64,000 nucleotides of DNA from a virus (IMGVR_UViG_3300025602_000002:102718-166717); one strand, 5' to 3'; shown: positions 17,777 to 45,894, counted from the first letter of the stretch. The notes: generated from the letters alone by a model not told the origin. Translations and numbers: made by a program.

Positions 17777-17804
17777 TTATAATTCCCTATTGTTAATAAT
17801 TGTT

Positions 17805-17836
17805 AAAAAAAAGACCCAGCGAGTGATCGCCGGGCC
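17805..17836 (-). terminator. Rho-independent terminator
   Basis: Hairpin CCCGGCGA-TCAC-TCGCTGGG followed on the minus strand by an 8-T run. Confidence 0.5.
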
Positions 17837-17901
17837 TAATTTCAAAGATATAAAGCGGTTAAGCTTTATAATGTCTTTTATTGACGATCTACATAGAAGC
17901 G

Positions 17902-18288: not shown

Positions 18289-18300
18289 TTGTTGTCTTGA

Positions 18301-20768: not shown

Positions 20769-20797
20769 AGTTTTCCTTTTAATAAGAACGAACGTAA

Positions 20798-20865
20798 CAG
20801 CGCGGATTGGATTCGAACCAATGTCTAGGGTATCCCCTAACTCTACCCTGCTGAGATACCGCCCC
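20798..20865 (-). tRNA. Short tRNA-like element (about 68 nt) with a tetraloop central arm
   Basis: T-arm ATTGG-TTCGAAT-CCAAT and a 6-of-7 acceptor stem. The central arm is TAGGG-GATA-CCCTA. Confidence 0.25.
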
Positions 20866-20896
20866 GTTACGCCGTTTCTTACGTACGTTTTGTAAG

Positions 20897-21661: not shown

Positions 21662-21691
21662 TGATAATCTCCTTTATCTTTGTGTGTTTGT

Positions 21692-22555: not shown

Positions 22556-22609
22556 TTTGTTTTTTTTCCTTTTCTAACTTGTATGTTATTATTTCGTCAG
22601 TTTATTAAT

Positions 22610-23524: not shown

Positions 23525-23548
23525 TTTGTATTTCCTTTTATTTATGGC

Positions 23549-23932
23549 TTAGTCTCTATCCCATAACTTTATAGAACTCTCCGCCGTACTCTGGGCGTGT
23601 TTGTACTCAACGTCAGAGTATTGGTATAAAGATGCTTTCCACATATCTTTATTTCGTGCAAATTGTTCAAGATGCTCGGGAGCTATCACTTCTGTTATTG
23701 ACAAACAGTTTCCAGCTGATTCACCTAACTGTGAACTATGTACGCGAGTATTTACATACAAAGTGTCAGAGTCAAAGTCTAACCAGTCGAAAGAGCGCCC
23801 CTCACCCTTTGGAATGAATTTAGTATTTTTGAGTTGGCATATCTCTAACACTGAAGGCTCATATAACCCAGGAAGCACCATTAATACTATATCGCCATCT
23901 TTCAGTGTTTTTAAAAGCTGGTTACTTTTCAT
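23549..23932 (-). CDS. Hypothetical protein
   Basis: 127 aa, between Pnk and the RNA ligase. Confidence 0.4.
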   Translation of the reverse strand: MKSNQLLKTLKDGDIVLMVLPGLYEPSVLEICQLKNTKFIPKGEGRSFDWLDFDSDTLYVNTRVHSSQLGESAGNCLSITEVIAPEHLEQFARNKDMWKASLYQYSDVEYKHAQSTAESSIKLWDRD

Positions 23933-24997: not shown

Positions 24998-24998
24998 T

Positions 24999-25520
24999 TT
25001 ATAATTTCCATTCTTGTTTTAAAAAGTTTATTCTGGCTGTTATACTTTTATAATATTGCCAACCTGCTGGAGACTCCCAGCGATTGCCCGCCCTGTAGGA
25101 TCTTACAGTTTTGGACCAGCTACCATTATGTCTCTCATTCTTCCAATAGGTTAGTTCAGTTATTGCTTCTCTACAACTAAGTATGTGACTATCTATGAGC
25201 CATTGGGCCACTACATTCCTATTAAAGGGTGTGTCCTCTATCTCATCTCTATGTCTACTCATATATGTGTTGATATTGATATGGTGAGCTCCTGCGGAAG
25301 GGTCTTGCAAATTTACAAGGTATTTACCTCCTGCAGATTCTTGCCACTCAATAGCAGCTAATGTCCACCCTAAATCAAAGGGCACCCCATATTCATAGGA
25401 TGCCCGTATTGATTCTTGTTGATGGCTTGTTAAAGCTTTCCATTCCTCAGGTAAGGCTCCAACGCATAAACATATATTTGTGAGTAGTATTAGTAAATAT
25501 CTAATCGAGCCAACTTGCAA
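24999..25520 (-). CDS. Hypothetical secreted protein, possibly lytic transglycosylase-like
   Basis: Signal-peptide-like N-terminus. The EWQESAGG motif weakly resembles an SLT domain. Confidence 0.25.
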   Translation of the reverse strand: MQVGSIRYLLILLTNICLCVGALPEEWKALTSHQQESIRASYEYGVPFDLGWTLAAIEWQESAGGKYLVNLQDPSAGAHHININTYMSRHRDEIEDTPFNRNVVAQWLIDSHILSCREAITELTYWKNERHNGSWSKTVRSYRAGNRWESPAGWQYYKSITARINFLKQEWKL

Positions 25521-25701
25521 TTGCAGCTATACCGCCTACAGCTAAAAATAATAAGACGAAGCCAAGCCACAGCGGGGCAGTTATCCACCACCAACTCCAT
25601 GTAATGACTCCAACTAACTTTAGGACAAGTAATACTATAAATAGTATGAATCCGGGATTTTTCATTTTTTCTCCGTTTGTTTTGGTTTTAAATATTTCCA
25701 A
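25501..25701 (-). CDS. Small membrane protein
   Basis: Two transmembrane helices, TAG stop. Confidence 0.35.
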   Translation of the reverse strand: MEIFKTKTNGEKMKNPGFILFIVLLVLKLVGVITWSWWWITAPLWLGFVLLFLAVGGIAAIASWLD

Positions 25702-26735
25702 ATTAAGGGCTTTATGTTTTTCCCTTGTAACATTGTAAATACTAAAGAAATTATTTGTTTATTTCCAATATTTATGACTTTTTCTGCTACTGCTTTGGAA
25801 GTTCGTTTTTTCATATCAATTGATTCTGGGAAACTAGTTATAAGGTGCATGTATTGTTTACAAGCAGTGTTTGCTAATATCACATAATTCTCTCTAAAGT
25901 TATCTATAGAGGTATGAAGCCATTTATAGTATTCATCTGGTACAATATCAATTAACTCTTGTATATCTAATTCTGGATCTGATAAGTATTTCCATACCGT
26001 TTTATCATTGCAAAGCTGCAATATACGGTGATGTCTTACATACCAGTCAAATTTTACTTTAACTCTGAACCCGTTATCATATGCTAACACAAATCCTTCT
26101 TTGTTTTCTTGATTTGGTACATTATATAACTCACTTACATCGCAATCATGTTCATATAGCTCTGTTCTTGGTATACAAGTAGTAACAGCGTGCAACCCTA
26201 TCTCTCTGCCAGTAAACGTATCGCGTACTGCCAATAGCCTTAGGTCGCTCTCTGGGTAGGTGATACAGGTCATCCCCCCTTTCTTAAGAGTAGGTGTTAA
26301 GAACTCATAGCAGTATGTGAAGTCCTCCCTTATAGTAAGGTCAGGGTATTTTTCTTCTAAGACTACATTGGCCTCTGTAATATATTCATTATCAAAAGAG
26401 CCTCTTGTAGATTTAATTAAATGCCCCCTCCACATAACCATTATAAATAGACATCCGTCTAGTTTATTAAAAATGCTGTAGTGGTCATCTGGGAGCTCGA
26501 TACCTAGTCCTTCTAATTCTGTATAGTTGAAAAATTTTCTAAAAGGGTTGGCTACTACAGTTCCATATTCATCTAGTATAAGACCCCTACATCTAGTAGT
26601 GGTATCGTTCCAATTTCGAGCATACTGTGTGGCATGGGTATAATTATATATCCAAAGTGGAAACTCTGGATGTTTTCTTCGCTTTACCCACCCTTCCTTT
26701 ATTTGGGTTTCTAAAACTGTTAGGACTGTATTCAT
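25662..26735 (-). CDS. Second RNA ligase (Rnl2-like family)
   Basis: KxDG motif FNKLDGCLFIM; 357 aa. Confidence 0.5.
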   Translation of the reverse strand: MNTVLTVLETQIKEGWVKRRKHPEFPLWIYNYTHATQYARNWNDTTTRCRGLILDEYGTVVANPFRKFFNYTELEGLGIELPDDHYSIFNKLDGCLFIMVMWRGHLIKSTRGSFDNEYITEANVVLEEKYPDLTIREDFTYCYEFLTPTLKKGGMTCITYPESDLRLLAVRDTFTGREIGLHAVTTCIPRTELYEHDCDVSELYNVPNQENKEGFVLAYDNGFRVKVKFDWYVRHHRILQLCNDKTVWKYLSDPELDIQELIDIVPDEYYKWLHTSIDNFRENYVILANTACKQYMHLITSFPESIDMKKRTSKAVAEKVINIGNKQIISLVFTMLQGKNIKPLIWKYLKPKQTEKK

Positions 26736-26738
26736 TAT

Positions 26739-27755
26739 TTACCTTTTTGTTTTAAAGCCTATATTATGAGAAGAAATTGCTACTTCAGACGTAGCTACCT
26801 CTTGCCTTAGTTTATTAATTCTGTCTATTGATACTTTATAATCTGTATCTAACATTATGACGCTTACTATGAGTTCTTTAATATGTGCGAAAGACCAGTT
26901 ATTAGTATCTTTTACCCAAGTATTTAATTCTTTACCCTTTAAACTACTCTTTAATTGTAAATATTTTTTACGAGTAATTTCATCTGGGTAATCCTGGTGC
27001 ATAACCCTGTCAAACCTCGAAGGTCTATTTTTTAAAGATGTAGGAAGCCGTTCTGGATAAGCAGTTGTAGCTAAAAATACAACATTATTTATTACTCCTA
27101 TTCCATCTAGTAAATCCAGAATCTTTGCTTCAGCTACTGGATCCATTATAATTCTGTCAATGTCTTCAATTATAACAAGTATGGGCCTATTCCCCTCAAT
27201 ATCTCTTATTCTAGTAATACCTTCTGATACTACAAAAGAGCTATCAAATACTAAATATCCTTTTTGAATACAATTTGACATTACTATTTTCATTGTACTA
27301 TTTTTTCCTGAGCCGTCTCCACCATAAATTAGAATTCCTCTTTTATGGCTTTCTCCCCAAGCTTTATAAGCTGATCCAAGTTTCCAAAATTTTCCTAATT
27401 CTAATAATATTTCTTCAGCTATTGAATTACTAAATAAAATTAGGTCCGAGGCTTCTAGCTCAATATTTAAGAACTCTACGGCGGCTCCTCTAGATTCTAA
27501 TACTTCATAATACCCTGCTGGTAAAATTTTTACAAAAGCTGAAGCTGGTAAAAAAGTTCCTTGTTCATTGGTTAAATATCCAGAGGTTACGTTTTCAAGA
27601 TTTAGGTTTTTATCTTCGGGGAGTAGGGCGCTATTCTGGCTATCTTCGGATAAAAAAGTTTCAGGTTCACTATTATTATATAATTCTGAACTTGTAATCT
27701 CTTTTTTCCTAAATTTATCAATTTGTTTTTTATCTACTTCTATTTTGCTAGTCAT
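26739..27755 (-). CDS. AAA-type ATPase
   Basis: Walker A ILIYGGDGSGKNST and a Walker-B-like hhhhDD segment ILVIIEDID. Confidence 0.5.
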   Translation of the reverse strand: MTSKIEVDKKQIDKFRKKEITSSELYNNSEPETFLSEDSQNSALLPEDKNLNLENVTSGYLTNEQGTFLPASAFVKILPAGYYEVLESRGAAVEFLNIELEASDLILFSNSIAEEILLELGKFWKLGSAYKAWGESHKRGILIYGGDGSGKNSTMKIVMSNCIQKGYLVFDSSFVVSEGITRIRDIEGNRPILVIIEDIDRIIMDPVAEAKILDLLDGIGVINNVVFLATTAYPERLPTSLKNRPSRFDRVMHQDYPDEITRKKYLQLKSSLKGKELNTWVKDTNNWSFAHIKELIVSVIMLDTDYKVSIDRINKLRQEVATSEVAISSHNIGFKTKR

Positions 27756-27765
27756 AAATCTCCAT

Positions 27766-27800
27766 AAAGAAAAACGGGGCCGAAACCCCGTTTATATATT
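27766..27800. terminator. Bidirectional rho-independent terminator
   Basis: Hairpin ACGGGG-CCGAAA-CCCCGT flanked by an A-run and a T-run. It lies immediately 3' of CDS 27799..28650 on the minus strand. Confidence 0.65.
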
Positions 27801-28650
27801 AATATCTAGTTGTACACGCTGGACAACATATCCAGGTAGACTTTTTTCGTCTAAGTCCACATTTTTGGCAATAACGTTTCTCTAAATCATTTACCGTAAT
27901 AGGTTTTAATGACATAGGTAATAATTTATAGGTTACTACATGAGAGGGAGTATGCTCAAATTTTTGATAGCTTCTTCCGAACTTTTGTTCTGAATGACTA
28001 CCTTGTTTAATTCTACCCGTCTCTTTCATAGGCGCGCTTGCAAAGCATGCGGTTGTAAGTACTTCGCCACTATCTTCTATCATACCCATAGCCATTTGAG
28101 GCTCTGCTGGATTTGAGCATCTTGTGCCCCTAGCGCTATACATACTTGGCGCTGACATGCCGCTAATTCCCGTGAATTCGCCAGCAAGGTCGGTCCACCA
28201 AGTATTATCGTTGGTTAGTATATCACCTTCCCATGTAAACGGTCTTGGGTAGACATTAGGATTAGTGTATGGGCTACAGTATTTATGCTCGATAGGAAAT
28301 GACTCTCGATAAAACTCTATCTCTAGTAATCCGTTCTCGGCTATAGCTTTGTCTATTTCCTCAGTATCTTCTACGTTATATGTTGAAAATTCAAACTTTC
28401 GATCTACTTCGATATGTCGTTCCAGAAAATAATGCTGTCCAGGGTCAAGCACAAGCCCGCCATTGGAAATATATTTTCCATTAAGTTTTATCCTCAATTT
28501 ACAGGAAGAAGTTTCTAAGTTAGTAAGTTCGATTTCAAATTCGTCTTTATCATTTAAGTAATAAGTTGCTTCTATGCCATTCCAGACATCTAATTGGCTA
28601 TATACTTTTAAACGATTCTTTTGAATTGTAAGGTTGGTTTTTATATTCAT
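27799..28650 (-). CDS. Hypothetical protein with a C-terminal zinc ribbon
   Basis: 283 aa; C-terminal CQKCG...CCPACTTRY. Confidence 0.45.
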   Translation of the reverse strand: MNIKTNLTIQKNRLKVYSQLDVWNGIEATYYLNDKDEFEIELTNLETSSCKLRIKLNGKYISNGGLVLDPGQHYFLERHIEVDRKFEFSTYNVEDTEEIDKAIAENGLLEIEFYRESFPIEHKYCSPYTNPNVYPRPFTWEGDILTNDNTWWTDLAGEFTGISGMSAPSMYSARGTRCSNPAEPQMAMGMIEDSGEVLTTACFASAPMKETGRIKQGSHSEQKFGRSYQKFEHTPSHVVTYKLLPMSLKPITVNDLEKRYCQKCGLRRKKSTWICCPACTTRY

Positions 28651-28786
28651 TATTGTTACCTTGTGTTTACGTCAAATTTGTGTGGAATTGCCACACTCAA
28701 ATGCCACATATTTAATATGACACTCTGATACAATTATCAGGTCTCTTAAATATAACTATTATTTTTAATATAACCAACTATTATAT

Positions 28787-29068
28787 TTATAGCGTAAGCA
28801 TGTCTCCATGCCCACTATCTAGTTTGATACTAGTGCACCCTGCGTTGGGCATACCAAAATCGTCTAGTGGTTCAAATCCGTCGTATTCTCCGCAAATATA
28901 TCCGGTGTAATATAATATATCATCATCGTCATACATTTCGAATTTTCTGCCGAATTCTGTAATTTCTTCTTCGGAATATACAGCCCCTCCTGGGCCTAAT
29001 GTTCCTAATTCATCTTTTAAACTTTCAAGATGGCTTTCGGTTATAATCCAAGCATAAGCTCTACTCAT
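28787..29068 (-). CDS. Hypothetical acidic protein
   Basis: ORF of 93 aa. Confidence 0.35.
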   Translation of the reverse strand: MSRAYAWIITESHLESLKDELGTLGPGGAVYSEEEITEFGRKFEMYDDDDILYYTGYICGEYDGFEPLDDFGMPNAGCTSIKLDSGHGDMLTL

Positions 29069-29081
29069 AGTAGTTTATTGG

Positions 29082-29438
29082 TTAATTAAATAAATATCTC
29101 GGTATTATTATTAAGATAGCTGTAATTACCCAAAGAATCCCAGTACCCATAAATCCGGCTAACATACTTATTAACGCAGTTCCAAAAGTTATTATTATTA
29201 GTTCTTTAGAAGTGCAAAAATTTTCAGTAAATTTTAACATCTCTGTTGACTTGGTATTTATATCTATAGCAGAAGAATCGTCCGTCGTCGCTAACTTTAC
29301 TATATGTATAATAACTAATGTTATTAACGCTATAGTAGTTAAAGTTATGAAAAAGAATATTAGTCCCTCTATGTGAAGTAAGAACATTATTGCAGGTATT
29401 AGTAGTAATAATGTCTTCTTATATTTCATATTAATCAT
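29082..29438 (-). CDS. Membrane protein
   Basis: Three or four transmembrane helices. Confidence 0.4.
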   Translation of the reverse strand: MINMKYKKTLLLLIPAIMFLLHIEGLIFFFITLTTIALITLVIIHIVKLATTDDSSAIDINTKSTEMLKFTENFCTSKELIIITFGTALISMLAGFMGTGILWVITAILIIIPRYLFN

Positions 29439-29784
29439 CTTCTGTTTCCTTTTGTTTTTGTTTTTGTACTAGTTTACATACAGCTTCGTATTTTTTAGGC
29501 TCTTCTTTAGCCTCACTATAGTTACTATAAACTCTTTCCATTTCTTCTTTTATTTCTTGTGCAGTTTGAATGTTGTTGAGAATTTTAATAGGGCCGTCAT
29601 GCTCAATTCGAATTGAACCGATACAAGGTTCACCCCAACCTTCATCCATATGTTCTTGATCTAGTTCAGCTAATTTTTCACTTTCCATTAATTGTGGATA
29701 AGCACTTCCATCCCCACCGTTTTGTACACTGTACCATATTTTAGTTATCATTATTGTTTTTTTTTGATTTAGTTTAGTTGACAT
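29431..29784 (-). CDS. Hypothetical protein
   Basis: ORF of 117 aa. Confidence 0.35.
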   Translation of the reverse strand: MSTKLNQKKTIMITKIWYSVQNGGDGSAYPQLMESEKLAELDQEHMDEGWGEPCIGSIRIEHDGPIKILNNIQTAQEIKEEMERVYSNYSEAKEEPKKYEAVCKLVQKQKQKETEDD

Positions 29785-30073
29785 GCTCTCTAGTATTTAG
29801 AATAGCTTTTACATGTTTAACGAAGGCTTCCCAATCATCACTTAACTTCTTTAAAGCCTTAGCTTCTTCATCTGTTACATTTTTATAACTCGATGTAACA
29901 ACTCCATCCTTGTCTTCATACCATAGAACTTCGCATCTGAATTCGCAACAGTAAAACATACAAGTTTTTCGTAGCTTATTTCGAATCGATTTATAGTAAG
30001 ATAGTAGGCGTTTAGTATTCAATTTGTGCAGCTGTTTATCAGTCAGTATATTAATTTCGTCTTGTAATTCCAT
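29774..30073 (-). CDS. Hypothetical protein
   Basis: ORF of 99 aa. Confidence 0.35.
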   Translation of the reverse strand: MELQDEINILTDKQLHKLNTKRLLSYYKSIRNKLRKTCMFYCCEFRCEVLWYEDKDGVVTSSYKNVTDEEAKALKKLSDDWEAFVKHVKAILNTREHVN

Positions 30074-30092
30074 AGGTTTCCTTTTTTGATTG

Positions 30093-30165
30093 CTGTAACG
30101 ACGAGACTCGAACTCGCAACCACTGCATTAACAGTGCAGCGCTCCACCAATTGAGCTACGTTACA
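30093..30165 (-). tRNA. tRNA-Asn(GTT)
   Basis: Perfect acceptor TGTAACG/CGTTACA, D-arm GCTC-AATTGGTG-GAGC, anticodon stem CTGCA/TGCAG with loop CTGTTAA, T-arm GCGAG-TTCGAGT-CTCGT. Confidence 0.75.
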
Positions 30166-30176
30166 GATTTAATTTA

Positions 30177-30428
30177 TTAGGTCATTTTTGGATAATCAAT
30201 GGAAGAGGCGTGATACTTACCAGCTAAAACATCCAGTTTTTCCATTTCAAAGCTTACTTTTAATACTTGATGAACTGGATAATAACTCATAATTCCATTT
30301 TCAACGTTACGCCATCCTTCTGTTATTATTCTATGTGCATGCTCTCGAGCCACTGCTGAATCACTTACTTCATACTTGAATACTCTTCCGTCTTGCATAT
30401 ACACATTTATTGTAATTGACTTTTTCAT
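30177..30428 (-). CDS. Hypothetical protein
   Basis: ORF of 83 aa, downstream of tRNA-Asn. Confidence 0.35.
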   Translation of the reverse strand: MKKSITINVYMQDGRVFKYEVSDSAVAREHAHRIITEGWRNVENGIMSYYPVHQVLKVSFEMEKLDVLAGKYHASSIDYPKMT

Positions 30429-30657
30429 TTTATCTTTTATTGGTTGATTTTGCTAAATAAGCCTCTTCATCTTCTTTCCAGTTTCCTGTAAGCTCTGGAT
30501 AAATTTCAAAAAACATTCCTGAATTTAATAGTTTATCATAACCTTCTCGAAGATTATCCATTAACTCTTCATATCTTTTGGCAACAGCGTCATCTACTGT
30601 ATGCTCATGATTATAAACAATTATTTTTTTTCATTTGGTTCCTTTTTAATGGGGGCG

Positions 30658-30728
30658 TGAAGGCGGTAGGAATCGAACCTACGTCGGCGGCTTAAAGGGC
30701 CGCTGCTAAACCACTCAGCTACGCCTCC
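30658..30728 (-). tRNA. tRNA-Lys(TTT)-like
   Basis: Acceptor GGAGGCG/CGCCTTC, anticodon stem GCGGC/GCCGC with loop CCTTTAA (C at position 33), T-arm GTAGG-TTCGATT-CCTAC. Confidence 0.45.
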
Positions 30729-30814
30729 ACAGTTTTTATATTATGAGTGTTAATATTAATAGTAGTGCTACAAAATGTAGGAACTGGTCAAAACCTATAG
30801 TATTAAACATAAAC

Positions 30815-31129
30815 CTAATTTTGTTTAAAGCAAATGCTTTTTTTTACTATTCTACTAGTAACAGCGTCTATCCATAAATGTGACATAAATAATAAAGACC
30901 AGCATAGCGCTGCATTTCCTAATGAAATAGTTATTATTGTGCCAAGAGAGGGCGCTAGCATTATAAACGCCGTCAATACAGTGGCATATACTACACAATG
31001 TAAAATTAGAATGCCCCAGTGTTCATGTTTTTTTGAAGCCATTTCCTGTGTTTGAAACAAGAAATCTGCTACCCAATGAACTAGCAATACAACTAGTATT
31101 ATGTGAACTGTAAATGTTGTAGTTAACAT
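30815..31129 (-). CDS. Membrane protein
   Basis: Four predicted transmembrane helices. Confidence 0.4.
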   Translation of the reverse strand: MLTTTFTVHIILVVLLVHWVADFLFQTQEMASKKHEHWGILILHCVVYATVLTAFIMLAPSLGTIITISLGNAALCWSLLFMSHLWIDAVTSRIVKKSICFKQN

Positions 31130-31410
31130 TAGCAGCCTTTATAGTGGGAATCGTAACGTTCTATAAACGCGGCTAACCACCCTGCTAATAAAAGGCAGCC
31201 CGCTATCGTAATAGGAGTACTAGGTAGTATAATTCCTCCAGCTATTACAAATACTCCTGTCAAGAAGTTCAGTAGTAATCTTAATGCTCCGAAAAATTTA
31301 AAATTCATTTTGTGTTCCTTATTATTTTTATTAATTAAAATACTTATCGTAAGTATTGAGGGATGAGTCGGATTCGAACCGACACAGTCCAGGGTTGCAG
31401 CCTGTCGCAT
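31129..31410 (-). CDS. Small membrane protein
   Basis: Two transmembrane helices. The N-terminal part of the ORF overlaps tRNA-Cys and the true start is probably internal. Confidence 0.3.
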   Translation of the reverse strand: MRQAATLDCVGSNPTHPSILTISILINKNNKEHKMNFKFFGALRLLLNFLTGVFVIAGGIILPSTPITIAGCLLLAGWLAAFIERYDSHYKGC

Positions 31411-31433
31411 TAACCAATTTTGCTTACCATCCC
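31359..31433 (-). tRNA. tRNA-Cys(GCA)
   Basis: Acceptor GGGATGG/TCATCCC, anticodon loop CTGCAAC, T-arm GTCGG-TTCGAAT-CCGAC. Confidence 0.5.
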
Positions 31434-31510: not shown

Positions 31511-32470
31511 CTATTCAAACAATACTTTTAAGACACCATTTCTGCTGGTCATCATTATGTTGGTCGACGGTGTTACCGCTTTCTCCAACGTTTCCAACGA
31601 TTTCACAAAATTATAAAAGTCTGGATCTGCGCCATAAGCTTCTGCGTAGATCTTGGTAGCTGTTGCATCAGCTGTACCTTTAATCATCTCAGACTCATTA
31701 TAAGCCTCAGACATTAGATTTTTTATTTTGTTATTTCGTCTTCCAGCTAATTCCTGTCTCTCTTTCTGCCCCTGGGCGCGATATTTCTGAGCAATTCGTG
31801 ACTGCTCTGAAACCATTCTATCCTGTATCTTTTTCTTGACTACATTGGTAAAATTTACCCGTTTCAGCTGAACGTCTATAATTTCGATTCCTAATTTACG
31901 TTCGGCTAGTTTTGATTGAGCCATTGCCAGGATTTTAGCCACAATTTCGTCTCGGATTCCTGGTTGCATGAAGCTGGACTCGGTGCCCTGATCTTCAGTA
32001 TTTGTATCTGAGGTTTCCTGCGAACGTAACACCATCTCCCGATTACTAGACCGTACAATTTGAGACATTACATGCTCAGCAATTATGTCACGTGAGCTAC
32101 CATCTATTACATCATCAATTCGAGATTGTGCCTGGTTTTCACGACCACCTACAGCTTTATGATATTCCTGAGGATCACTAATTCTCCATCTGGCAAATAC
32201 ATCAATAAAGACATATTTATTATCTTTTGTAGGTAATTCTTCGGCATCCCCATCCCATTCCAGAATACGTTTGTCATAAACATGCTTATTCTGAATGTAA
32301 GGAATCTTCAGGTGAACCCCTGCGTCAGTAATCGCTTCGCCGCGAATTTTACCAAACTGAGTAATCACCACTTGTTCTTTTTCATCGATAACGTATAAAC
32401 CGCTAAAGAATCCAAAAAGCAGGAACATAAAGAGGAATATGAAAGCCCCTTTTTTAACTGTCAATTCCAT
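31511..32470 (-). CDS. hflC: HflC-like SPFH/band-7 protein
   Basis: N-terminal transmembrane helix followed by an SPFH domain; paired with the upstream HflK-like gene. Confidence 0.65.
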   Translation of the reverse strand: MELTVKKGAFIFLFMFLLFGFFSGLYVIDEKEQVVITQFGKIRGEAITDAGVHLKIPYIQNKHVYDKRILEWDGDAEELPTKDNKYVFIDVFARWRISDPQEYHKAVGGRENQAQSRIDDVIDGSSRDIIAEHVMSQIVRSSNREMVLRSQETSDTNTEDQGTESSFMQPGIRDEIVAKILAMAQSKLAERKLGIEIIDVQLKRVNFTNVVKKKIQDRMVSEQSRIAQKYRAQGQKERQELAGRRNNKIKNLMSEAYNESEMIKGTADATATKIYAEAYGADPDFYNFVKSLETLEKAVTPSTNIMMTSRNGVLKVLFE

Positions 32471-32472
32471 AA

Positions 32473-33396
32473 CTAGTTGCCTCCCAAATTAAAGTGTGGT
32501 AGTGCTGAAATGTTTTCATCAATAAACCAAACGTTTTCTGCTGTCGGTAGAATTTTCTGCATTGTTTCAAAATATAAACGGTCCTTAGTTACCTTAGGAT
32601 TTACTTTATACTCATTATATACTGCAGTAAACCAAGCTGTGTTACCTTTAGCTTCGTTAACTCTTTCGATAGCATAACCATTTGCTTCCTCAACCAGTCT
32701 TGCCGCTTCACCTTCAGTTTCTGTTACCTGCTTGGTGTAGTCTTCCCTGGCCTCATTAATAGTAGTCTCCTGCGTTTGCTCAGCAGAATTTACTTCTTTA
32801 AAGGCAGCCTGAACTAGCGGAGGTGGATCAACAGTTTTCAACTGAACCAACTCTACGATAATGCCGCATTCATATAATGTTAGCATATCCTGCAGGTGAG
32901 TCTTGGCCGTATTGGCTATAGCTACACGATCTTTTTGTAATACTTCATAGAAGGAGCGATCCCCTACCATTAAACGCATTACACTTTCCGAACCGTCTCG
33001 CAAGAGCTCTTCAGGGTTTCTAGTGGCAAACAAATACTGATAAGGATCATTAATCTTATATTGTACAACCCATTGTAGGTACACAATATTTAAATCCCCT
33101 GTCAGCATTTCTGATTCTTCGACGAATCCGCTTTTGTTGTAGTTGGTATTTTTACCAGCAGATACAGTTCTAAATCCAAATTCGGCTTTATATTCATACT
33201 CAGTTCTCACTTTGTATGCTTCATCAATCCCGAACGGAATCTTAAATTGTAGTCCTCCAACAGCGGTAGTACTATTGTACTTCCCCAAACGGAGCACGAC
33301 TGCTTGTTCATTAGCGTCTAGCGTGTATGCAGCTGAGAATGTACCCCAGAGCACTACAACGACTATAGCTATTAAAATGCCTAGCGCTTTGTTCAT
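32473..33396 (-). CDS. hflK: HflK-like SPFH/band-7 protein
   Basis: N-terminal transmembrane helix plus SPFH domain, with a coiled-coil C-terminus. Confidence 0.65.
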   Translation of the reverse strand: MNKALGILIAIVVVVLWGTFSAAYTLDANEQAVVLRLGKYNSTTAVGGLQFKIPFGIDEAYKVRTEYEYKAEFGFRTVSAGKNTNYNKSGFVEESEMLTGDLNIVYLQWVVQYKINDPYQYLFATRNPEELLRDGSESVMRLMVGDRSFYEVLQKDRVAIANTAKTHLQDMLTLYECGIIVELVQLKTVDPPPLVQAAFKEVNSAEQTQETTINEAREDYTKQVTETEGEAARLVEEANGYAIERVNEAKGNTAWFTAVYNEYKVNPKVTKDRLYFETMQKILPTAENVWFIDENISALPHFNLGGN

Positions 33397-33599: not shown

Positions 33600-34127
33600 C
33601 TACTCCTTATCTAAATATCCCGGAAGGTTATAAGTCTTTATTAATTTTAGAAACGCTTCCAAATTACCCATAGCGTCATCGATAGAGCTATGTGTATGAG
33701 GAGTATCTCTCAGGTGTTTGAAGTTTTCAAAAGGAGTTTGAACCAACCCTTTAAAAAGACTTCCTAGGTTTGCACTTGAGTGCCCAAAGGGATTTATCCC
33801 TAAGTACTTATGACAGTAATAATTTATGAACTGCCAATCATGCCCATTGTTATCAGATATAAACATCGGCCTTCCTTTTGAAGTTTCTTTTACAAACTCT
33901 GCTAAAGTTTTTATAGCTTCTTCAGGATCTCCGTATCCAAGAGTTTCTTCCCTAGTTACCCCTATCTTTTCTAAAGCTTCAGGTTTCCATAGGTTAGTAA
34001 TAGGCCTTAGGCGCTCGTGGACGGACTCGTCCTTCGCTTCCGTGACCCTTATTGCTGCAAACTCTACCATAGAGAATATTCCAGGGCATTCCCCGTCAGA
34101 CTCTATGTCTATCATGAAATAACTCAT
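33600..34127 (-). CDS. DEDD-family 3'-5' exonuclease
   Basis: Exo I motif MIDIESDG and Exo III motif HSSIDDAMG. Confidence 0.6.
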   Translation of the reverse strand: MSYFMIDIESDGECPGIFSMVEFAAIRVTEAKDESVHERLRPITNLWKPEALEKIGVTREETLGYGDPEEAIKTLAEFVKETSKGRPMFISDNNGHDWQFINYYCHKYLGINPFGHSSANLGSLFKGLVQTPFENFKHLRDTPHTHSSIDDAMGNLEAFLKLIKTYNLPGYLDKE

Positions 34128-34133: not shown

Positions 34134-36913
34134 CTACTCCTTGTATTTTAACGTGTCTACTTCGTCTGGAATCCACCAATCGTAGTAATATTCATTATCA
34201 AACTGAACGTGATTGACCCACAAGTTGTACTCGCGTGCAGCCATCTCCGAACTGTTTTCCATTTTATGATGAACTAGGTCTCTAGATATCCATATACTGG
34301 CAAATAAACAGAATACTGCTATTAACTCCCAATATATAGCTTCTGTTTTCCATCTTGGTAATCCAATTGCTTGAAAATACCACGGTACTAAAAAACATAT
34401 AACTAGAAATCCTACTATCCATGATAACATCTTAACCTCCTTCCATTTTTCTTAATTCTTTAAAGCTTCGCCTTTAATTATTTGTTCTATAATCATTCCA
34501 GAATATTCTTCATCCTGATTTACAACCCAATAATTAGGTGCTGCTTCTCTTCCTGTTTTCTCTCTATATTTTTGTATTTTTATTATTATTGCCTGCAGAA
34601 CTAAGCGTTCATCAGGCTCTAGACCTTTGTCAATATCTTCAGTTTTCAGTATTAGGAATAAGTTGTCTTTTATGTTTACTGTACTCATCGGTCTAGATGG
34701 TTAGTTGTTTTATGCTTCTGCCTCTATTCCTGAGCTGGCAGTTGCTCGTTCGATACTAATTGTATCTATTGCTTCTCCGTCGTCTAAAGCTATAGCAGCC
34801 CTTACTAACGACTCAAGTTCGTACATGGTTACCGGTAAACAGGCTCCCAATCGATCTTCTTGATTTTTATGATGCACTACTTTTAATAAGTTTTGCATTA
34901 ACTTCATGTTATCTCCTTTTTCTTATACCTTATTTATTGTTATATTTTTGGCGTTCGCTGTTAGCTAATGCCGAGTATCTACTGGCATAATCCATTGAAA
35001 GTTTTTCAGATACGAAACTAGCCATATTTAAATGTTGAGAAAAGGAAACCATCTCTTCTCCAGGAGTAAACCAGAAAACTCTAACTTCTAAGATACCGTC
35101 TGCATTTTTTCTAAGAGAAAGCTCTACTCTATCTGCCTTTGTAAGTTTAAGAATTTGTTGAAGAGGCTTTATGTCGTTCATAATTTTACATCTCTCAGGT
35201 TTTGTCGTAAGATATCTCCTAAAACTACAACATAGTAAATAGTAGTATCCTCAAATAATATTTTAGTGTTTATCCACTTGCGAGTTACATAACTAGAGGC
35301 ATCTTCTTTATAAGTAGCATAAGATACCCCCATGTAGAACATCACCTCATCGAACTCTACCGGGATAGTGCCGGGTTCTAACTTCATAAGGACTTCTCCA
35401 CATTTAGGGAGAAATTCTACCTTATATTCTAAGATTTCACCTTTTACTATTTTTCTTAATATTTCAGCATTAGTATAGATCATTAGGGTTTTGTTCATTC
35501 GTTTTACAAAAGTCATTGGGGTGCTCATTCGGAACGGATCCCTCCCATTTTGAAAAAGTCTACATTACTTAACCCGGTAAATTTGAAAGAATCTCTGTCT
35601 TTTTTCGAGTATTTATCGCAGACATAATGTTCCATTTCATCAACAAACTGGTTAAAATCCATTTTGTTGAAATAGTTTATAGTATCAATAGCTTCTTTTA
35701 ATTCGTGAAAGTTATGTTTTATTTTTCTTATTGCACACCCGCCTTTAGTTGTGCGAACTATTTCAGTATTCATGAGTTCTCCCCTTTTGCTTATTATATG
35801 GTTCTTTCAAGTAAAAAAAATCACCTAATTCTGAACATTTTCCTTTTTCTGATTCGGTATAGCAGCATGTCCTATGATATTTATGTTTTTGATATTTCGT
35901 ATGACACACACATTCACAGCTTTCCCATTTTTCTTTTGGTTCTGGTATCTTATCCACCAACCATACCACGAAAGGAGTTTCCCAATAAAAATTACCAGAT
36001 TCTCCGGCTTCATATTGAGCTCTTACATTTTCCTCTCTCAAATACTGTTCCATTAGTTTTGTTAATTTCATTCTTTCTCCTTCGGCTTAATAGACTCAGC
36101 AAGCCTCTTGCCTAGATCTGTAGCGCATCTAACTATGTCGTTAGCCATAATATCTAAATACTGTTGAGTATAATTCTCAGGAATATTAAAACAGAATGAT
36201 TCGTCCTCTTCGTTAACAAAGGATATTGTACCTTCATATCTATCATGTCGTTTATGTTCTTTCTTTTCCCAACCATATCCTTGTTTAAACCTGATACTTA
36301 TATTATCAAGTTTCCAATTATTTTCCATTATTTCTCCTTATTTAGGGTTTAATAGCAACATACAAATCTAAGGCTTTATATATTATTTCGCCTTCTTGTA
36401 AATTCGCCCTCACCTTTTCTTCAATATTGCCCCACTCCATAAGATTTTTATAATTGTATCTTTTGTCATGAAAGAAATTAATACTTTTTAGCAAATCTTT
36501 TTCAATCTGTGTTAAATCATTTTTCATTTAGTCTCCTCCAGTTTCTCTGGTATACTGTTCATATAGGCAATCTAATTCACCTGCTGAAAACTCACAATCT
36601 AACTGAGTTGTCGGTCCATAATGACTTAGATGCCCTTCTTCTATTAACCATTCTATGAAGTCTTCCATTGTTGTTAGGTCCCCTTGATAAAATATGTTTC
36701 TTTGTGCCAATATGGGCTTTCTTTTACAACACTTCGATTTTTTTGTTTCTTAAAACATTTTTCACATACCCTGTGCTTTTTTGTAGCCATTCCAAAAGTC
36801 CAATAGATCCAGCTATGCCAGCAAAACCACTTTTTTCGTTGCTTAGTATGTAAAATTAGGTCGAGCTCTTCTCTAGTTAGTCTGTAACTTGTTGGGGTGA
36901 AATCAATTACCAT
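34134..36913 (-). other. Run of 11 small minus-strand ORFs (60-124 aa) of unknown function
   Basis: Track ORFs 34134..34430, 34452..34688, 34710..34907, 34930..35181, 35178..35528, 35525..35773, 35763..36071 (Cys/His-rich), 36068..36328, 36342..36527, 36528..36710 and 36674..36913. They are tightly packed, several with ATGA or TAAATG junctions. Confidence 0.4.
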
Positions 36914-37049
36914 ACTATGCTCCTTTATAATAGTTTTTCATCTGTTTATCCATTTTCTGTAGGGTCGTGTATAATTATTGAGTTTCCTTCACTCTTTGTT
37001 TCAACTACCATTCCTACACTTAATTCTAATTTCATTTCTTTTTCACTCC

Positions 37050-37769
37050 TTAATTATTTTCTATTAAATATACATGTTTTTCAATGTAATCTTTACCCCT
37101 AGCTGAGGCAAACACTGGGATATTCATATCTGGGTGGTTATTGTCTATACAGTACCCTTGTCGTCTTAAACTAGAGAAGTCATCAAAATTAATTCCTATC
37201 TTTTTGGATAGAAGATGTTTTATATTCTCAACACTTCTCATGTGAAGTTCTTTCTGAGAGAAATGCTCTCTTCCTACCATCTGGACAGCGTTGCGTATAG
37301 CATCTTGTTGTCTCCAGATATAATAGTTTGTCACTTCATCTTTTGCCAAATTAAAAGCTCTAGCATCAAACTGCACTTTTTCGCCAGTTATTGAATAAAA
37401 GTTAGTGCTTACGATAGCTGCTGTAATTGATACTATTTTCTGTATGGAATTATTGAACCACGACTGTGTGTTATGAGTTTTATAATCCGTTAATAAAAAA
37501 CTGATCTCATCAGATTGACCATAGCAAAACTTTGTTGACTGCATATCTTCCATAGAAGCCCTAGCAGTTTCCATCATATTTGCAGAGAATCCGGTAGACC
37601 ATCCTCTTCCATATAATTTTCTTGTAAGAGTGTGAAACGCTCTACCGTCTACTCTTATTATTACTGGCATTCTTTTGTGAAGCTTGTATTTATAGGTAGC
37701 TTCATAATCTTTCATACGATCACCTAGTGGGGTTCCGTCTCCCATATTATTTAGTCTCCTCTTTTTCAT
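37050..37769 (-). CDS. tRNA-His guanylyltransferase (Thg1)-like protein
   Basis: Thg1 signature motifs IIRVDGRAFH, YGQSDEISF and WRQQDAIRNA. Confidence 0.8.
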   Translation of the reverse strand: MKKRRLNNMGDGTPLGDRMKDYEATYKYKLHKRMPVIIRVDGRAFHTLTRKLYGRGWSTGFSANMMETARASMEDMQSTKFCYGQSDEISFLLTDYKTHNTQSWFNNSIQKIVSITAAIVSTNFYSITGEKVQFDARAFNLAKDEVTNYYIWRQQDAIRNAVQMVGREHFSQKELHMRSVENIKHLLSKKIGINFDDFSSLRRQGYCIDNNHPDMNIPVFASARGKDYIEKHVYLIENN

Positions 37770-37956
37770 CTACGAACTTTACTTGAAAGTTTTTTCCTTC
37801 TACTTGTTTAGTGTGTTCATCACATACATAAAGGAAGCCTATTAAGTGGTTATCTTTATTACGATGCCCCACCATGTGGATGTCCTTTCTAGTTGAAGAG
37901 CATATACAACAACATAGAATATAATCTTTTCCGCTGTTGTTTCCTACTTTACTCAT
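37747..37956 (-). CDS. Small Cys-rich protein
   Basis: 69 aa; CCCICSS...C. Confidence 0.3.
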   Translation of the reverse strand: MSKVGNNSGKDYILCCCICSSTRKDIHMVGHRNKDNHLIGFLYVCDEHTKQVEGKNFQVKFVDEKEETK

Positions 37957-37997
37957 TGTTTTTCATTGTTGTTTTCCTTTTTAGTTAAAAATAGAAA

Positions 37998-38024
37998 GAG
38001 GCGCACAGAATTATCTGGCGCCCC
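37998..38024 (-). terminator. Rho-independent terminator
   Basis: Hairpin GGCGC-ACAGAATTATCTG-GCGCC followed on the minus strand by a T-rich tract. Confidence 0.45.
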
Positions 38025-38032
38025 TAATTATT

Positions 38033-38656
38033 CTATAGTAATCCTTGTCTTTCTGCGATTGCTATAAGTGTTTCATTTGGTACTTTACGATTTCCTATAC
38101 TCAATCCTGTGTCTTCAAAGACTATTACGTCGCCGTCAAGGAATATTAATGGAGTTGTTTTAACATCTAACACTCTGGAACAGAAGCCAGCTCTAAACAA
38201 ATGACCTCCCTCTAATCCCGATTGTAATAACACATCCATGGCGTTTATACCGCGGTAATAACGTGGACCCGACACCTCACATACCGTTGTAACAGTTTCT
38301 ATATATTCGTCCATGTATCCATGCCAACTACGCCATTCTTTATCCGCATGAATACGTGCGAAATCGCCTTCTCTGAAAGCTACTCCATGAGGAGCTTCTG
38401 CTTTTATTCCATTTTGATTAAATAATCCCTGTAGTCCTGAATCAAGTTGTACTCCATATATAGTAATATTTTGGTCCTGGGGATTAATTGCTGAATCCAT
38501 AATTATTCCCAAGTCACCATTAGCTCCTACTGAGTGGTATTCCTGGTATTTATCGAGACCAAGTTTTCTCGCCATTTCTTCATAGCCACTATATTGTTGC
38601 CCAACGTGGGTTATAGACACTAAAGTATTTTTAGGGATTATATTATAGTCAATCAT
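38033..38656 (-). CDS. Paralog family A member 1
   Basis: Shares the C-terminal ...ERQGLL motif and internal similarity with 38657..39064 and 39094..39732. Confidence 0.45.
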   Translation of the reverse strand: MIDYNIIPKNTLVSITHVGQQYSGYEEMARKLGLDKYQEYHSVGANGDLGIIMDSAINPQDQNITIYGVQLDSGLQGLFNQNGIKAEAPHGVAFREGDFARIHADKEWRSWHGYMDEYIETVTTVCEVSGPRYYRGINAMDVLLQSGLEGGHLFRAGFCSRVLDVKTTPLIFLDGDVIVFEDTGLSIGNRKVPNETLIAIAERQGLL

Positions 38657-39064
38657 TTACAGTAAGCCTTGTCGTTCTAGTACAATTTTAATAGTATCAT
38701 TATCGATACATTGGCATCCTACCTGGATATCATCCTCACTAAAGACTACTTCATGTTCACCTATATACAAGGTTTCCTCTTCTATTTCTTCTGGCTCCAC
38801 TCTCATAAGAACGAAGAAAGGATATGAATTACCGTCTGATAACTCTATTCCTGTGTTAGAGTTTTTGCCTAGATTTGTTATTTTAAGGATATGCTCCTCT
38901 TCAACAGCCTCGGTCATCTCATGGATCCAGCTGTCTCCCCAACCCATTTCACCATCTTCAGCTGTTCTAACAACTTTAATAGATTCTCCTACTTCGAAGT
39001 CAGTGGCCTCGCTTAAAGTCATGTAGGCCATACTTAGTTTTGCGCTTGTTTCGCTATTGTTCAT
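38657..39064 (-). CDS. Paralog family A member 2
   Basis: RTAEDGEMGWGDSW and a C-terminal LERQGLL. Confidence 0.45.
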   Translation of the reverse strand: MNNSETSAKLSMAYMTLSEATDFEVGESIKVVRTAEDGEMGWGDSWIHEMTEAVEEEHILKITNLGKNSNTGIELSDGNSYPFFVLMRVEPEEIEEETLYIGEHEVVFSEDDIQVGCQCIDNDTIKIVLERQGLL

Positions 39065-39093: not shown

Positions 39094-39732
39094 TTAGTTT
39101 CTGGCAATGATGCCTTGTTTTTTGGCAACAGTTAATAATTGATCGTTGGATATAGTTAGGTTTCCAACCCTTACATACTCTTTGTGGAAGTGCATAATAG
39201 ATCCATCAAAGACTAGGGCTACGTCTTCCACAAACTCTAAAACAAACCAAGGTACCCAGTACGGGTTATCTCCCTCTAGGTCTTCAATTTCATAACTATT
39301 GTGATCTTTATTAGTAATTCTATATAAATCGCCAACATCACAATCGTCTAATTCTTCAGGCCACTCCTCTGCCCATCCATATTCATCTTCTTCTGCAGTT
39401 CTGACTAATTTTACTAAATTGCCTGTTTTCAGCTCACACTTTGCGTGGTATTCCTCAAAAATTCCATATAATGAGTTAGTGTTTGTATCTGGTTCTAGTA
39501 CAAACCATGGATACCATCTAGTTCCGGCTGGTGTATCTAACATAATTCCCTGTCTAGGGTCTACAGCTGTTACTGTATAAATATGGTCCACTGTACTGTT
39601 CATGTCCGTTGTCCAAACACAGCCGTACCCCATTTCGCCAGTTTTAGCCGTTCTAATGACTCTTACTTTATCCCTGACTCTAATATTGCAGTTTTCAGTA
39701 AATCGTCTATATAATTCTCGTTCGTTAGTCAT
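39094..39732 (-). CDS. Paralog family A member 3 (internally duplicated)
   Basis: Two copies of the RTA(K/E)xGEMGYG / YGWAEEW module and a C-terminal KKQGII motif. Confidence 0.45.
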   Translation of the reverse strand: MTNERELYRRFTENCNIRVRDKVRVIRTAKTGEMGYGCVWTTDMNSTVDHIYTVTAVDPRQGIMLDTPAGTRWYPWFVLEPDTNTNSLYGIFEEYHAKCELKTGNLVKLVRTAEEDEYGWAEEWPEELDDCDVGDLYRITNKDHNSYEIEDLEGDNPYWVPWFVLEFVEDVALVFDGSIMHFHKEYVRVGNLTISNDQLLTVAKKQGIIARN

Positions 39733-39934: not shown

Positions 39935-40897
39935 TTAGTCAGAAAATAGTTTAGATTCGCCATAGTTGTTATACGTATTATCTATACTGTCATTATGGTC
40001 ATAGTAGTCATCAGCTGGCATTCCAACTGTTTTAATAAAAGCTTCAGATAGCTCAGCATGTGTAGGTATTTTAGGGTTTACTTCTAATGACCATAAGGGA
40101 TATGACCACTTTACTAAACTTTCATCTGCAAATATACTACGTTTGTCGGTAATGTCGAGATTAGGTTTTAACCATACACGAGCATTATGTATATCTACGC
40201 GATCTACAATAGCAAATCTACCAATTGCTTCATCCATATTAGGAATCCAACAAGCTTTAGCTCCCAAATATTCATCTGGCACTTTAGTAACTATCTTTAC
40301 TGAGTCACCAGCGTGTATATAAGACTCTAATAATATTGAGTAAGCTTCTTTTATAGAAAGGTCTTGAAGTACGGCGCCAAATACGCTATCTTCCTCTTTA
40401 CGTACGTCTTCTGCAATTACTTCAGAAATTAACTTAGGAACTAATAAAGAAGTATAATTATTACTACTGCAGACGCTGGTAGTTTCTTCTAATTCTATCT
40501 TCTTTAAGCACCATATAGGGAAATAGCATTTAACTGCTGCTAATATTGTTTCAGTTGTATGTGTAAATATGCCTCTTTCGGAATACCAAATTGGATCTTC
40601 GCATAAAGTTACGCCATTCACGTAGGAACGTCTGTGCCCGAAAGGAGCGTTTGATAGTGTTTCAGGCGAGTCTATTATATGTATACCTTCAACTATAAAT
40701 CTATGCCCTATTGTTACATCCATTTCTGGTATCCAGTCCGTTGACCAGCCTAGCTTTTTACTAATGTCGCTAGTGTCTGAGGGGCTGTTGATTGTGTATG
40801 GATTTAGGACTTCTACTATATCTCCTGGCTTTAGATACGAACTTTGTAAAGTTTCATAAGCCTTTCTTAATATGATATTTTTGGGGGTGTTATTCAT
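39935..40897 (-). CDS. Paralog family A' member (YPLWSL motif)
   Basis: 320 aa; shares the YPLWSL and IGH(R/V)FIV motifs with 40979..41575. Confidence 0.45.
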   Translation of the reverse strand: MNNTPKNIILRKAYETLQSSYLKPGDIVEVLNPYTINSPSDTSDISKKLGWSTDWIPEMDVTIGHRFIVEGIHIIDSPETLSNAPFGHRRSYVNGVTLCEDPIWYSERGIFTHTTETILAAVKCYFPIWCLKKIELEETTSVCSSNNYTSLLVPKLISEVIAEDVRKEEDSVFGAVLQDLSIKEAYSILLESYIHAGDSVKIVTKVPDEYLGAKACWIPNMDEAIGRFAIVDRVDIHNARVWLKPNLDITDKRSIFADESLVKWSYPLWSLEVNPKIPTHAELSEAFIKTVGMPADDYYDHNDSIDNTYNNYGESKLFSD

Positions 40898-41999: not shown

Positions 42000-42660
42000 T
42001 ATAGGTAAATAATAAAGATAAGAGAAAAGTATAAAAAATCCAAACTACACTTTTGAATCCATTACTACACCATTACTACACATAGTAAAAAAATATATGT
42101 ATATATAATAACAATAACTTATTTGGTCTAAACTACGATTACTACGATTACTACGCTTTCTGGAAGGAGAGACACGTCAGCAAATATTTATAAATTGTCG
42201 ATCTCTTTTTTTTCTGATTAAGGACCCTCTAGTTTTGGCCTAAAAGTGTAGTAATGTAGTTTAGTATTGATAAGTGTATGTAAATAAAGAATATATCCAA
42301 ACTACACTTTTGAAAATAGGTGTAGTAACGTGTAGTAATGAAATTGGTAATTGCTATAAATGCTTAAAAATACTGATGTTATAGATAAAAAAAAGTGTAG
42401 TTTAGAATTTGGAAATATTTCCTTAATTAGGATACGCTTGTCTTTTTAGTATATAAATGATGGTGTAAGTGATGGTGTAAATGGTGTTCCGTGCAGGCTA
42501 CAAGCCTACTTTTTCCTAAAGTTAATTACAAGCGGTTTGCTAGCAACCAACTTGTGTTCTCCTTAGTACGCATTATTGATATATATGCTAACGGAACATT
42601 CAGGAAGTTTAATGGCCTTTCGAGAAGAAAAAGATAGCACGGCCAATTACGGCCAATTAT
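42000..42660. repeat. Repeat-rich AT-rich intergenic region
   Basis: An 18-bp exact direct repeat CCAAACTACACTTTTGAA at about 42039 and 42296. Inverted copies AAAAGTGTAGT at about 42252 and 42400. Tandem ATTACTACG x3 at about 42128. GATGGTGTAA x2 at about 42458. GGCCAATTA(C/T) x2 at 42641. Confidence 0.55.
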
Positions 42661-45820: not shown

Positions 45821-45823
45821 TTA

Positions 45824-45894
45824 TAAATGACGAGAATCGAACTCGTGATCTACGGATTAATATTCCGTTGCTCTACCAACTGAGCTACATTATG
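45824..45894 (-). tRNA. tRNA-like element with an ATATTAA anticodon loop (positions 34-36 = ATT)
   Basis: Canonical D-arm GCTC-AGTTGGTA-GAGC and T-arm ACGAG-TTCGATT-CTCGT, with anticodon stem ACGGA/TCCGT. The acceptor strands pair poorly. Probably a pseudogene or unusual tRNA. Confidence 0.3.

Follow-up and report, generated by a model that had tools for sequence, protein, structure and literature searches.

Why would a phage whose tRNA-His gene already encodes the guanosine at position -1 (G-1) also carry the gene for a Thg1-like protein (TLP), a type of enzyme that polymerizes RNA in the 3'-to-5' direction? The question is raised by IMGVR_UViG_3300025602_000002:102718-166717, a stretch of viral DNA of 64,000 nucleotides (hereafter, the window), in which the TLP gene lies at 37050..37745 and the gene for tRNA-His(GUG) at 11154..11242, both on the minus strand. 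On balance, we consider that this TLP would serve as a general, templated tRNA 5'-end repair enzyme during infection. It is already known that phage TLP genes are common and annotated and that they form a PHROG. Thg1-like genes have been on record in phages since 2010, the year of a Thg1 analysis that took in 201phi2-1 (PMC2904730), and a role in repair at both tRNA ends was proposed in 2021. Iyer, Anantharaman, Krishnan, Burroughs, and Aravind divided the work of the jumbo-phage toolkit between enzymes that seal breaks, namely the polynucleotide kinase-phosphatase Pnkp and RNA ligases, and enzymes that put back what has been lost: RlaP and CCA-adding enzymes for missing nucleotides, and Thg1 for those of the 5' end (PMC7824862). 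What is new here is an aberrant tRNA-His as a candidate TLP substrate, the heterogeneity at positions -1 and 73 in the tRNA-His of phages with a TLP, and the finding that the gene for the prototype enzyme, BtTLP of Bacillus thuringiensis, lies on a phage replicon. The window TLP itself is a new, divergent member of a known phage TLP family.

Family, start codon, and catalytic residues of the TLP

An earlier note on this DNA had claimed a Thg1-family open reading frame (ORF) at 37050..37769 on the basis of three motifs. The ORF is there, on the minus strand, with all three motifs: IIRVDGRAFH at residues 37-46, YGQSDEISF at residues 83-91, and WRQQDAIRNA at residues 152-161. The possibility that the motif similarity is superficial was not borne out, as profile and structure-based comparisons all gave strong matches. 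The Thg1 profile PF04446 matched the ORF with E=6.1e-23 and 81.6 bits (cutoff 29.2) over profile positions 2-126 of 130, PHROG 4717 ('tRNA-His guanylyltransferase') matched with E=8e-68, and the BtTLP structure, PDB 4KGK, matched with E=4.9e-43 and 150.6 bits at 40% identity over 200 aa. No NCBIfam model matches the window TLP. In the comparison with bacterial and archaeal TLPs that the note had called for, bacterial BtTLP is the nearest, the archaeal TLP 5AXK scoring 47 bits; the eukaryotic proteins 3WBZ, 3OTB, and 7CV1 score about 28 bits.

The mechanically delimited ORF, which reaches 37769, encodes 239 aa. The true start of the TLP is most likely the second ATG, at 37745, giving a protein of 231 aa, because an AGGAG Shine-Dalgarno sequence (37756..37760, minus strand) precedes this ATG by 10 nt, because the upstream ORF terminates at 37749..37747, because an identical database protein (P0001) has 231 aa, and because the aligned homologues mostly have about 226-235 aa. 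Residue numbers below refer to the 239-aa ORF.

The alignment to 4KGK was read against the residue roles given by Hyde et al. 2013 (PMC3701042). R39 and D41 (R39-V-D41, 37647..37655, minus strand) correspond to R28 and D30 of BtTLP, the nucleoside triphosphate (NTP)-binding arginine and the first metal-binding carboxylate, while S86-D87-E88 (37506..37514, minus strand) corresponds to S74, D75, and E76, with D87 and E88 as the second and third conserved carboxylates. The three active-site carboxylates are thus kept (D29, D76, and E77 in human THG1). The residues involved in NTP binding and activation, E12, R28, S74, R131, R147, and N154 in BtTLP, are likewise found in the window protein as E23, R39, S86, R137, R153, and N160. 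The last two lie in WRQQDAIRNA (37287..37316, minus strand), a TLP-type version of this segment. All mapped catalytic and NTP-binding residues are invariant in an alignment of 28 relatives. In addition to these residues and the WRQQDA..N motif, the window TLP resembles BtTLP (4KGK/4KGM) in size, with 231 aa against a PDB chain of 245 residues.

The segment WRQQDAIRNAV of the window protein aligns to WRQVDCHINNLYN of Candida Thg1, and the HINNLYN segment of the latter is absent. Because WRQQDAIRNAV replaces the Candida sequence, the window protein can be classified, by its sequence, as a bacterial-type TLP of the BtTLP type. We rejected its assignment as a true Thg1, namely a strict tRNA-His guanylyltransferase, on account of the missing HINNLYN segment and the low similarity (the scores of about 28 bits) to Thg1 proteins. 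Eukaryotic Thg1 proteins (yeast, human, and Candida; 3OTB and 3WBZ) share the fold family and the carboxylates with the window protein. They add a non-templated G-1 opposite A73 and choose tRNA-His via the GUG anticodon; neither property is expected of the window TLP. An inactive or degenerate gene was also rejected, as the catalytic residues are intact and the identical protein occurs in 80 blocks of the sequence collection, on 47 contigs. The gene product is apparently an active 3'-5' RNA polymerase.

Proposed general repair of tRNA 5' ends

In the reading that we favor, the window TLP would activate the 5'-monophosphate of a tRNA with ATP or GTP, as its homologue BtTLP does, and would then add nucleotides in the 3'-to-5' direction, with positions 72, 73, etc., on the 3' side of the acceptor stem as the Watson-Crick template. 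In repair or quality control it would act on tRNAs of host and phage that are short of 5' nucleotides, and it would restore G-1 opposite C73 of tRNA-His as a special case of this. The enzyme would act beside, and not in an operon with, Pnkp, two RNA ligases, RlaP, and the 23-24 phage tRNAs. A role in 5'-end repair had also been put forward in the earlier note. It is the best-supported reading, although on grounds other than the encoded G-1 from which the note had argued: the window TLP is of the same type as BtTLP, which favors 5'-truncated tRNAs of any identity; in phages, genes for RNA end repair and tRNA arrays, but rarely a tRNA-His, are found near the TLP gene; and the prototype BtTLP is encoded on a jumbo prophage that has many tRNAs and no tRNA-His.

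As to the first of these grounds, BtTLP favors 5'-truncated tRNAs 5-160 fold and has no bias for G or for tRNA-His (PMC3061083), and nearly all TLPs tested repair diverse tRNAs (PMC11404450). As to the last, residues 4-208 of BtTLP are 100% identical to a coding sequence on pBTHD789-2 (NC_018509.1, 140973..141710; loci L256, L258, and L259). This replicon is pBtic235, an inducible, circular jumbo prophage-plasmid of 235 kb with 17 tRNAs (PMC6199540; PMC9700832). ARAGORN placed the 17 tRNA genes at 155169..158192, 13-17 kb downstream of the BtTLP gene on the same strand, and found no tRNA-His among them. BtTLP is 78-80% identical to the TLPs of virulent Bacillus myophages, and no paper in the searchable literature links pBtic235 to a guanylyltransferase. 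Since the BtTLP gene is located on a jumbo prophage, the published biochemistry of BtTLP is in effect that of a jumbo-phage TLP, and since pBtic235 has no tRNA-His, at least that phage keeps its TLP for something other than the maturation of a phage tRNA-His. The BtTLP gene, carried by a jumbo prophage-plasmid and followed about 14 kb downstream by a tRNA array on the same strand, in this way parallels the window. The two differ in origin, a Bacillus prophage versus a phage from a marine metagenome, and in the immediate surroundings of the gene: the neighbors on pBtic235 are genes for a GIY-YIG nuclease, LigA, and DnaE, whereas those in the window are ORFans. Moreover, the window phage has a tRNA-His, one with an aberrant 5' end.

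The company that TLP genes keep in viruses was surveyed in 159 viral TLP loci representing 56 TLP clades, in which the ORFs within 6 kb of the TLP were clustered. In 49 of the loci (33/80 and 16/79 in the two parts of the survey), tRNA genes lay no more than 10 kb from the TLP; a tRNA-His did so in only seven. The most frequent neighbors within 6 kb were an NAD-dependent DNA ligase (21 loci), a metallophosphoesterase (20), RlaP (17 plus 14), a YonO/RdRP-like polymerase (17), a CCA-adding enzyme (16), and a kinase-HD protein (15). At least one of RlaP, the CCA-adding enzyme, the kinase-HD protein, or the metallophosphoesterase occurred within this distance in 49/159 loci (22/56 clades), always on the strand of the TLP. 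At locus L015, RlaP lies directly downstream of the TLP gene, starting 5 nt after it; in Aeromonas phage 4L372D a CCA enzyme is encoded 1 kb from the TLP, and in XacN1 an RNA ligase is encoded 4 kb from it. The association with repair genes is regional and not operonic.

The window, too, has RNA repair genes and a tRNA array, all on the minus strand, and the kinase and ligases that the earlier note had named beside the TLP were recovered together with RlaP. A T4-type break repair set, consisting of Pnkp and an ATP-dependent RNA ligase, is present: the T4-type Pnkp is encoded at 22610..23524 (PF25109 HAD_PNKP, E=3e-42, plus an AAA_33 P-loop kinase domain), and a DraRnl-type (DRB0094) RNA ligase, ATP-dependent and with an OB fold at its N terminus, at 23933..24997 (PF21189 and PF09414; TIGR02306, E=1.7e-58, 198 bits against a cutoff of 151). 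A distant T4 Rnl1-like RNA ligase follows at 25662..26735 (PF09511, E=1.3e-11, 45 bits against a cutoff of 28); its score with TIGR02308, 71.9 bits, is under the NCBIfam cutoff. An RlaP-family Pol-beta nucleotidyltransferase, which is RNA-ligase-associated, is encoded at 17099..17776 (PF10127, E=8e-22). An RNase T/DEDD-type 3'-5' exonuclease at 33600..34127, identified through the precomputed PF00929 match of the identical gene on a scaffold of the same phage (L001), may be part of the repair set. The tRNA array comprises 23 genes called by ARAGORN at 236..31433. CCA is encoded by four of the 23, and no CCA-adding enzyme was found by tblastn within the window, though the other 19 lack an encoded CCA. 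In this respect the window differs from the toolkit of Iyer et al., which includes CCA-adding enzymes.

Several points weigh against general 5'-end repair. In the window, Pnkp and the ligases are 13-14 kb from the TLP gene and the repair genes overall 10-20 kb, albeit on the same strand, and the TLP gene is flanked by ORFans only. Across the viral loci, the association with repair genes is flat over 10 kb and comes without a background control. As far as the searchable literature shows, no activity has been measured for TLPs of virulent phages. DdiTLP2 is a tRNA-His-specific TLP (PMC11404450), and sequence alone cannot separate tRNA-His-specific TLPs from general ones. The weakest link is the source of 5'-truncated tRNAs during infection: the literature searched yielded neither a process nor an antiphage nuclease known to produce them; in the portions of the antiphage nuclease literature that were retrieved, cleavage is in the anticodon arm or the 3' tail.

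The tRNA-His and other possible roles for the TLP

As the earlier note had stated, the phage tRNA-His encodes G-1 opposite C73: the G at 11242 faces C73 at 11157, and CCA is encoded. The gene was called by ARAGORN at 11154..11241 on the minus strand and by the Rfam tRNA model (47.7 bits), and in this tRNA, which is 88 nt long, the variable arm has 17 nt and forms a GGAG/CUCC stem. The adjacent tRNA-Thr(UGU) gene (11243..11327, minus strand), of 85 nt with an extra variable arm, ends at 11243, and G-1 is the single nucleotide that separates the two tRNAs. Because tRNA-Thr abuts G-1 of tRNA-His, the two would form a dimeric precursor. Long, class-II-like variable arms such as those of both tRNAs are unusual for these identities.

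The G-1:C73 pair normally directs bacterial RNase P to keep G-1. In the canonical bacterial tRNA-His, this pair is placed on G1:C72 in an acceptor stem of 8 bp, whereas the phage tRNA-His has a mismatched U·C at 1:72, the sole non-initiator 1:72 mismatch among the 23 tRNAs of the window. By nearest-neighbor calculation, the cloverleaf has an energy of -25.9 kcal/mol when G-1 and U1 are unpaired and of -25.3 kcal/mol when G-1:C73 is closed over the mismatch, a cost of +0.6 kcal/mol; a hypothetical G1 version, at -32.0 kcal/mol, is 6.1 kcal/mol more stable than the former. In the minimum free energy fold, G-1 and U1 are both unpaired. The G-1:C73 pair of the phage tRNA-His is predicted by this model not to be stabilizing, and RNase P might fail to retain G-1. 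The U1·C72 mismatch is real and not an assembly error, since two assemblies made independently from different samples agree at every base of the tRNA-His region. All retrievable copies of the phage are near-identical and offer no covariation for U1·C72. Searches with exact and degenerate patterns revealed no relatives of this odd tRNA-His in metagenome_contigs or genome_contigs, and in IMG/VR an 18-nt D-arm pattern was shared by just one clade of TLP-bearing contigs (the L023 clade described below), apart from chance matches inside coding sequence.

From the encoded G-1, the earlier note had concluded that G-1 addition is unneeded for this tRNA. The premise stands, but it does not suffice for the conclusion: the G-1:C73 pair is predicted not to be stabilizing over the U1·C72 mismatch, Rao et al. 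hold that a TLP may add G-1 even where G-1 is encoded, and two other clades of TLP-bearing contigs have a tRNA-His with U at -1. In the first of these clades (L023, 19183-19255; L038; L039), the tRNA-His has C73 and a clean cloverleaf with a perfect stem, and in the second (L024, 13713-13786; L027) it has U73 and two U·U mismatches.

These observations bear on an unlikely though still arguable alternative, in which the TLP is dedicated to tRNA-His and adds or restores G-1, with C73 as the template, on the tRNA-His of the phage or the host. Owing to the U1·C72 mismatch, RNase P could then cut at +1 and remove G-1, or the 5' end would fray and be prone to loss. The uniqueness of the mismatch in the array, its occurrence in both assemblies, the cost of closing G-1:C73 and the unpaired G-1 and U1 of the predicted fold, and the contigs that combine a TLP with a U at -1 are consistent with such a role, as is the ability of BtTLP to add G-1 opposite C73. 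At locus L002 (10001-10765), moreover, a tRNA-His begins 11 nt past the TLP stop codon, within a tRNA array. However, this tRNA-His, like those of L003 and XacN1, encodes a normal 5' end, with G-1, G1:C72, C73, and CCA all present. The scarcity of tRNA-His near viral TLP genes, the complete absence of a tRNA-His from pBtic235, the kinetic preference of BtTLP for truncated tRNAs, and the lack of the HINNLYN segment of Candida Thg1 also argue against dedication to tRNA-His. So do the Caulobacter phages, which carry TLPs though the tRNA-His of C. crescentus is without G-1 (PMC3064791); TLPs are found in 20 records of Caulobacter and Brevundimonas phages.

It is rather improbable that the TLP has a role outside translation or works on something other than tRNA, namely on structured RNAs or duplexes whose 5' ends it would extend or repair. 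DdiTLP4 and AcaTLP2, which bind and extend generic RNA duplexes at least as well as they do tRNAs, may have substrates other than tRNA, but BtTLP binds RNA duplexes weakly, with a KD of 7-12 uM (PMC11404450). The nearest conserved neighbors of viral TLP genes are often genes of DNA metabolism, such as the NAD-dependent DNA ligase and the GIY-YIG, LigA, and DnaE genes of pBtic235; tRNA arrays and genes for RNA end repair are, however, associated with the TLP at least equally often.

In Dictyostelium, both TLP roles exist in vivo, DdiTLP3 acting in mitochondrial 5'-editing and DdiTLP2 adding G-1 to mitochondrial tRNA-His (PMC11404450), and the phage tRNA-His with its U1·C72 mismatch resembles an editing substrate of the DdiTLP3 type, although the Dictyostelium systems are eukaryotic and organellar. 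The weakest reading, in which G-1 and U1 of the phage tRNA-His are removed and the TLP rebuilds G1:C72 and G-1:C73 as DdiTLP3 would, is very improbable: the mismatch exists, the G1 version would be far more stable, and Dictyostelium mitochondrial TLPs perform exactly such repair, yet only one window tRNA has a mismatch of this kind, a nuclease for the 5' trimming was not identified, the mismatch may simply be tolerated in tRNA-His, and mismatches at acceptor pairs 1-3 are not in excess among 163 distinct tRNAs near viral TLP genes (2, 2, 1, 3, 1, 3, and 2 mismatches at positions 1-7, respectively).

We regard it as improbable, but worth stating, that the phage tRNA-His is transcribed with a defective 5' end and becomes a good substrate for histidyl-tRNA synthetase only after rebuilding by the TLP. 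Rebuilding could follow either of two routes: re-addition of G-1 after an RNase P cut at +1, or replacement of U1 by G1 and then addition of G-1, with C72 and C73 as the templates. If true, this would be the first bacterial virus to depend on a TLP for the maturation or 5'-editing of a tRNA, and the L023 clade would provide further examples.

The source phage and the TLP family in phages

The remaining features of the window, all on the minus strand, include several unusual tRNA genes. A tRNA of the amber-suppressor type (anticodon CUA; 2676..2752) lies 3 nt downstream of tRNA-Leu(UAG); TAG is the stop codon in 6 of 39 large window ORFs. Two tRNAs at 6334..6409 and 6468..6545 have C1·A72, which is initiator-like, and an encoded CCA; the former has an odd anticodon loop, CAGGCAG, with A at position 33, and is under the Rfam gathering score. 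A tRNA-like gene at 15834..15906 has a 6-nt anticodon loop and two acceptor mismatches, and a tRNA detected by Rfam only (45822..45893, 58.7 bits) has the loop AUAUUAA and a poorly paired acceptor stem. A SpoU-type RNA 2'-O-methyltransferase is encoded amid the tRNA genes at 4720..5271, as is, at 7304..14307, an NAD salvage/synthesis cluster (NMNAT-like, NUDIX, NadE, nucleoside deoxyribosyltransferase-like, HAD, NAPRTase, and NADAR proteins). Of two overlapping genes at 18301..20768, one encodes 563 aa and weakly matches a protein kinase, and the other encodes a PP2C-type phosphatase; two SPFH/Band 7 proteins are encoded in tandem at 31511..33396. PhoH, UDG, and thioredoxin are encoded in the flank.

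Upstream of the TLP gene, the ORFs at 38033..38656, 38657..39064, and 39094..39732 encode proteins with similar C-terminal tails (ERQGLL, KKQGII) and may be paralogues; the adjoining ORF at 39935..40897 has a different ending. PHROG gave no match for 38033..38656 or 39094..39732, the two that were scanned, and nothing informative came from Pfam and PHROG scans of the immediate neighbors of the TLP gene and of the ORFs tested at 46-64 kb. At about 42458..42480, an otherwise 100% identical ENA scaffold (L001:5166-5265) is about 100 bases longer, and the BLAST segments overlap by 23 bp, which suggests a repeat-mediated indel between populations.

The window is probably from a marine jumbo phage. 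The ENA copies of the phage are from marine metagenomes, ERZ23491642 is among the samples that carry it, and the tRNA array, the placement of almost all genes on one strand, the many ORFans, the T4-like RNA repair genes, and the NAD salvage genes argue strongly for a jumbo phage; no virion genes were identified among the window ORFs tested. The identical protein P0001 is labeled at NCBI as a hypothetical protein of a 'Candidatus Scalindua' metagenome-assembled genome (MAG), and its contigs are up to 211.7 kb long. A megablast of 36000..39000 against GenBank phages gave no match. The best database match of the window TLP is 54-55% identical, the best IMG/VR relative only about 52%, and the full-length homologues in GenBank phages 26-42% (best about 40%). 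It belongs to the same family as PHROG 4717 and the GenBank phage genes, which are typical of large phages with tRNA and RNA repair genes, but it is without a close relative.

TLP homologues occur in 164 GenBank phage records, among them those of Bacillus Bastillevirinae, XacN1, CcrColossus, 201phi2-1, and Lak phages, and most are already annotated as tRNA-His guanylyltransferase. In rough, pattern-based counts, at least 598 stretches of IMG/VR encode a TLP as compared with 168 in 185,579 species-representative genomes, and many of the latter are on MAG contigs of 100-260 kb. Iyer et al. described Thg1 as 'only sporadically present' in the jumbo-phage toolkit, in contrast to the number of IMG/VR stretches counted here. 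These counts, together with the location of the BtTLP gene on pBtic235, suggest that the bacterial-type TLP clade is largely phage-borne.

The window gene can be annotated with confidence as a TLP-type 3'-5' RNA polymerase in a region rich in tRNAs, ligases, Pnkp, RlaP, and NAD-salvage genes, and the aberrant tRNA-His provides a concrete candidate substrate for it. If the clade is indeed phage-borne, the natural substrates of 5'-end repair would have to be sought in phage infection, including possible host defenses that target tRNA, and not in bacterial housekeeping.

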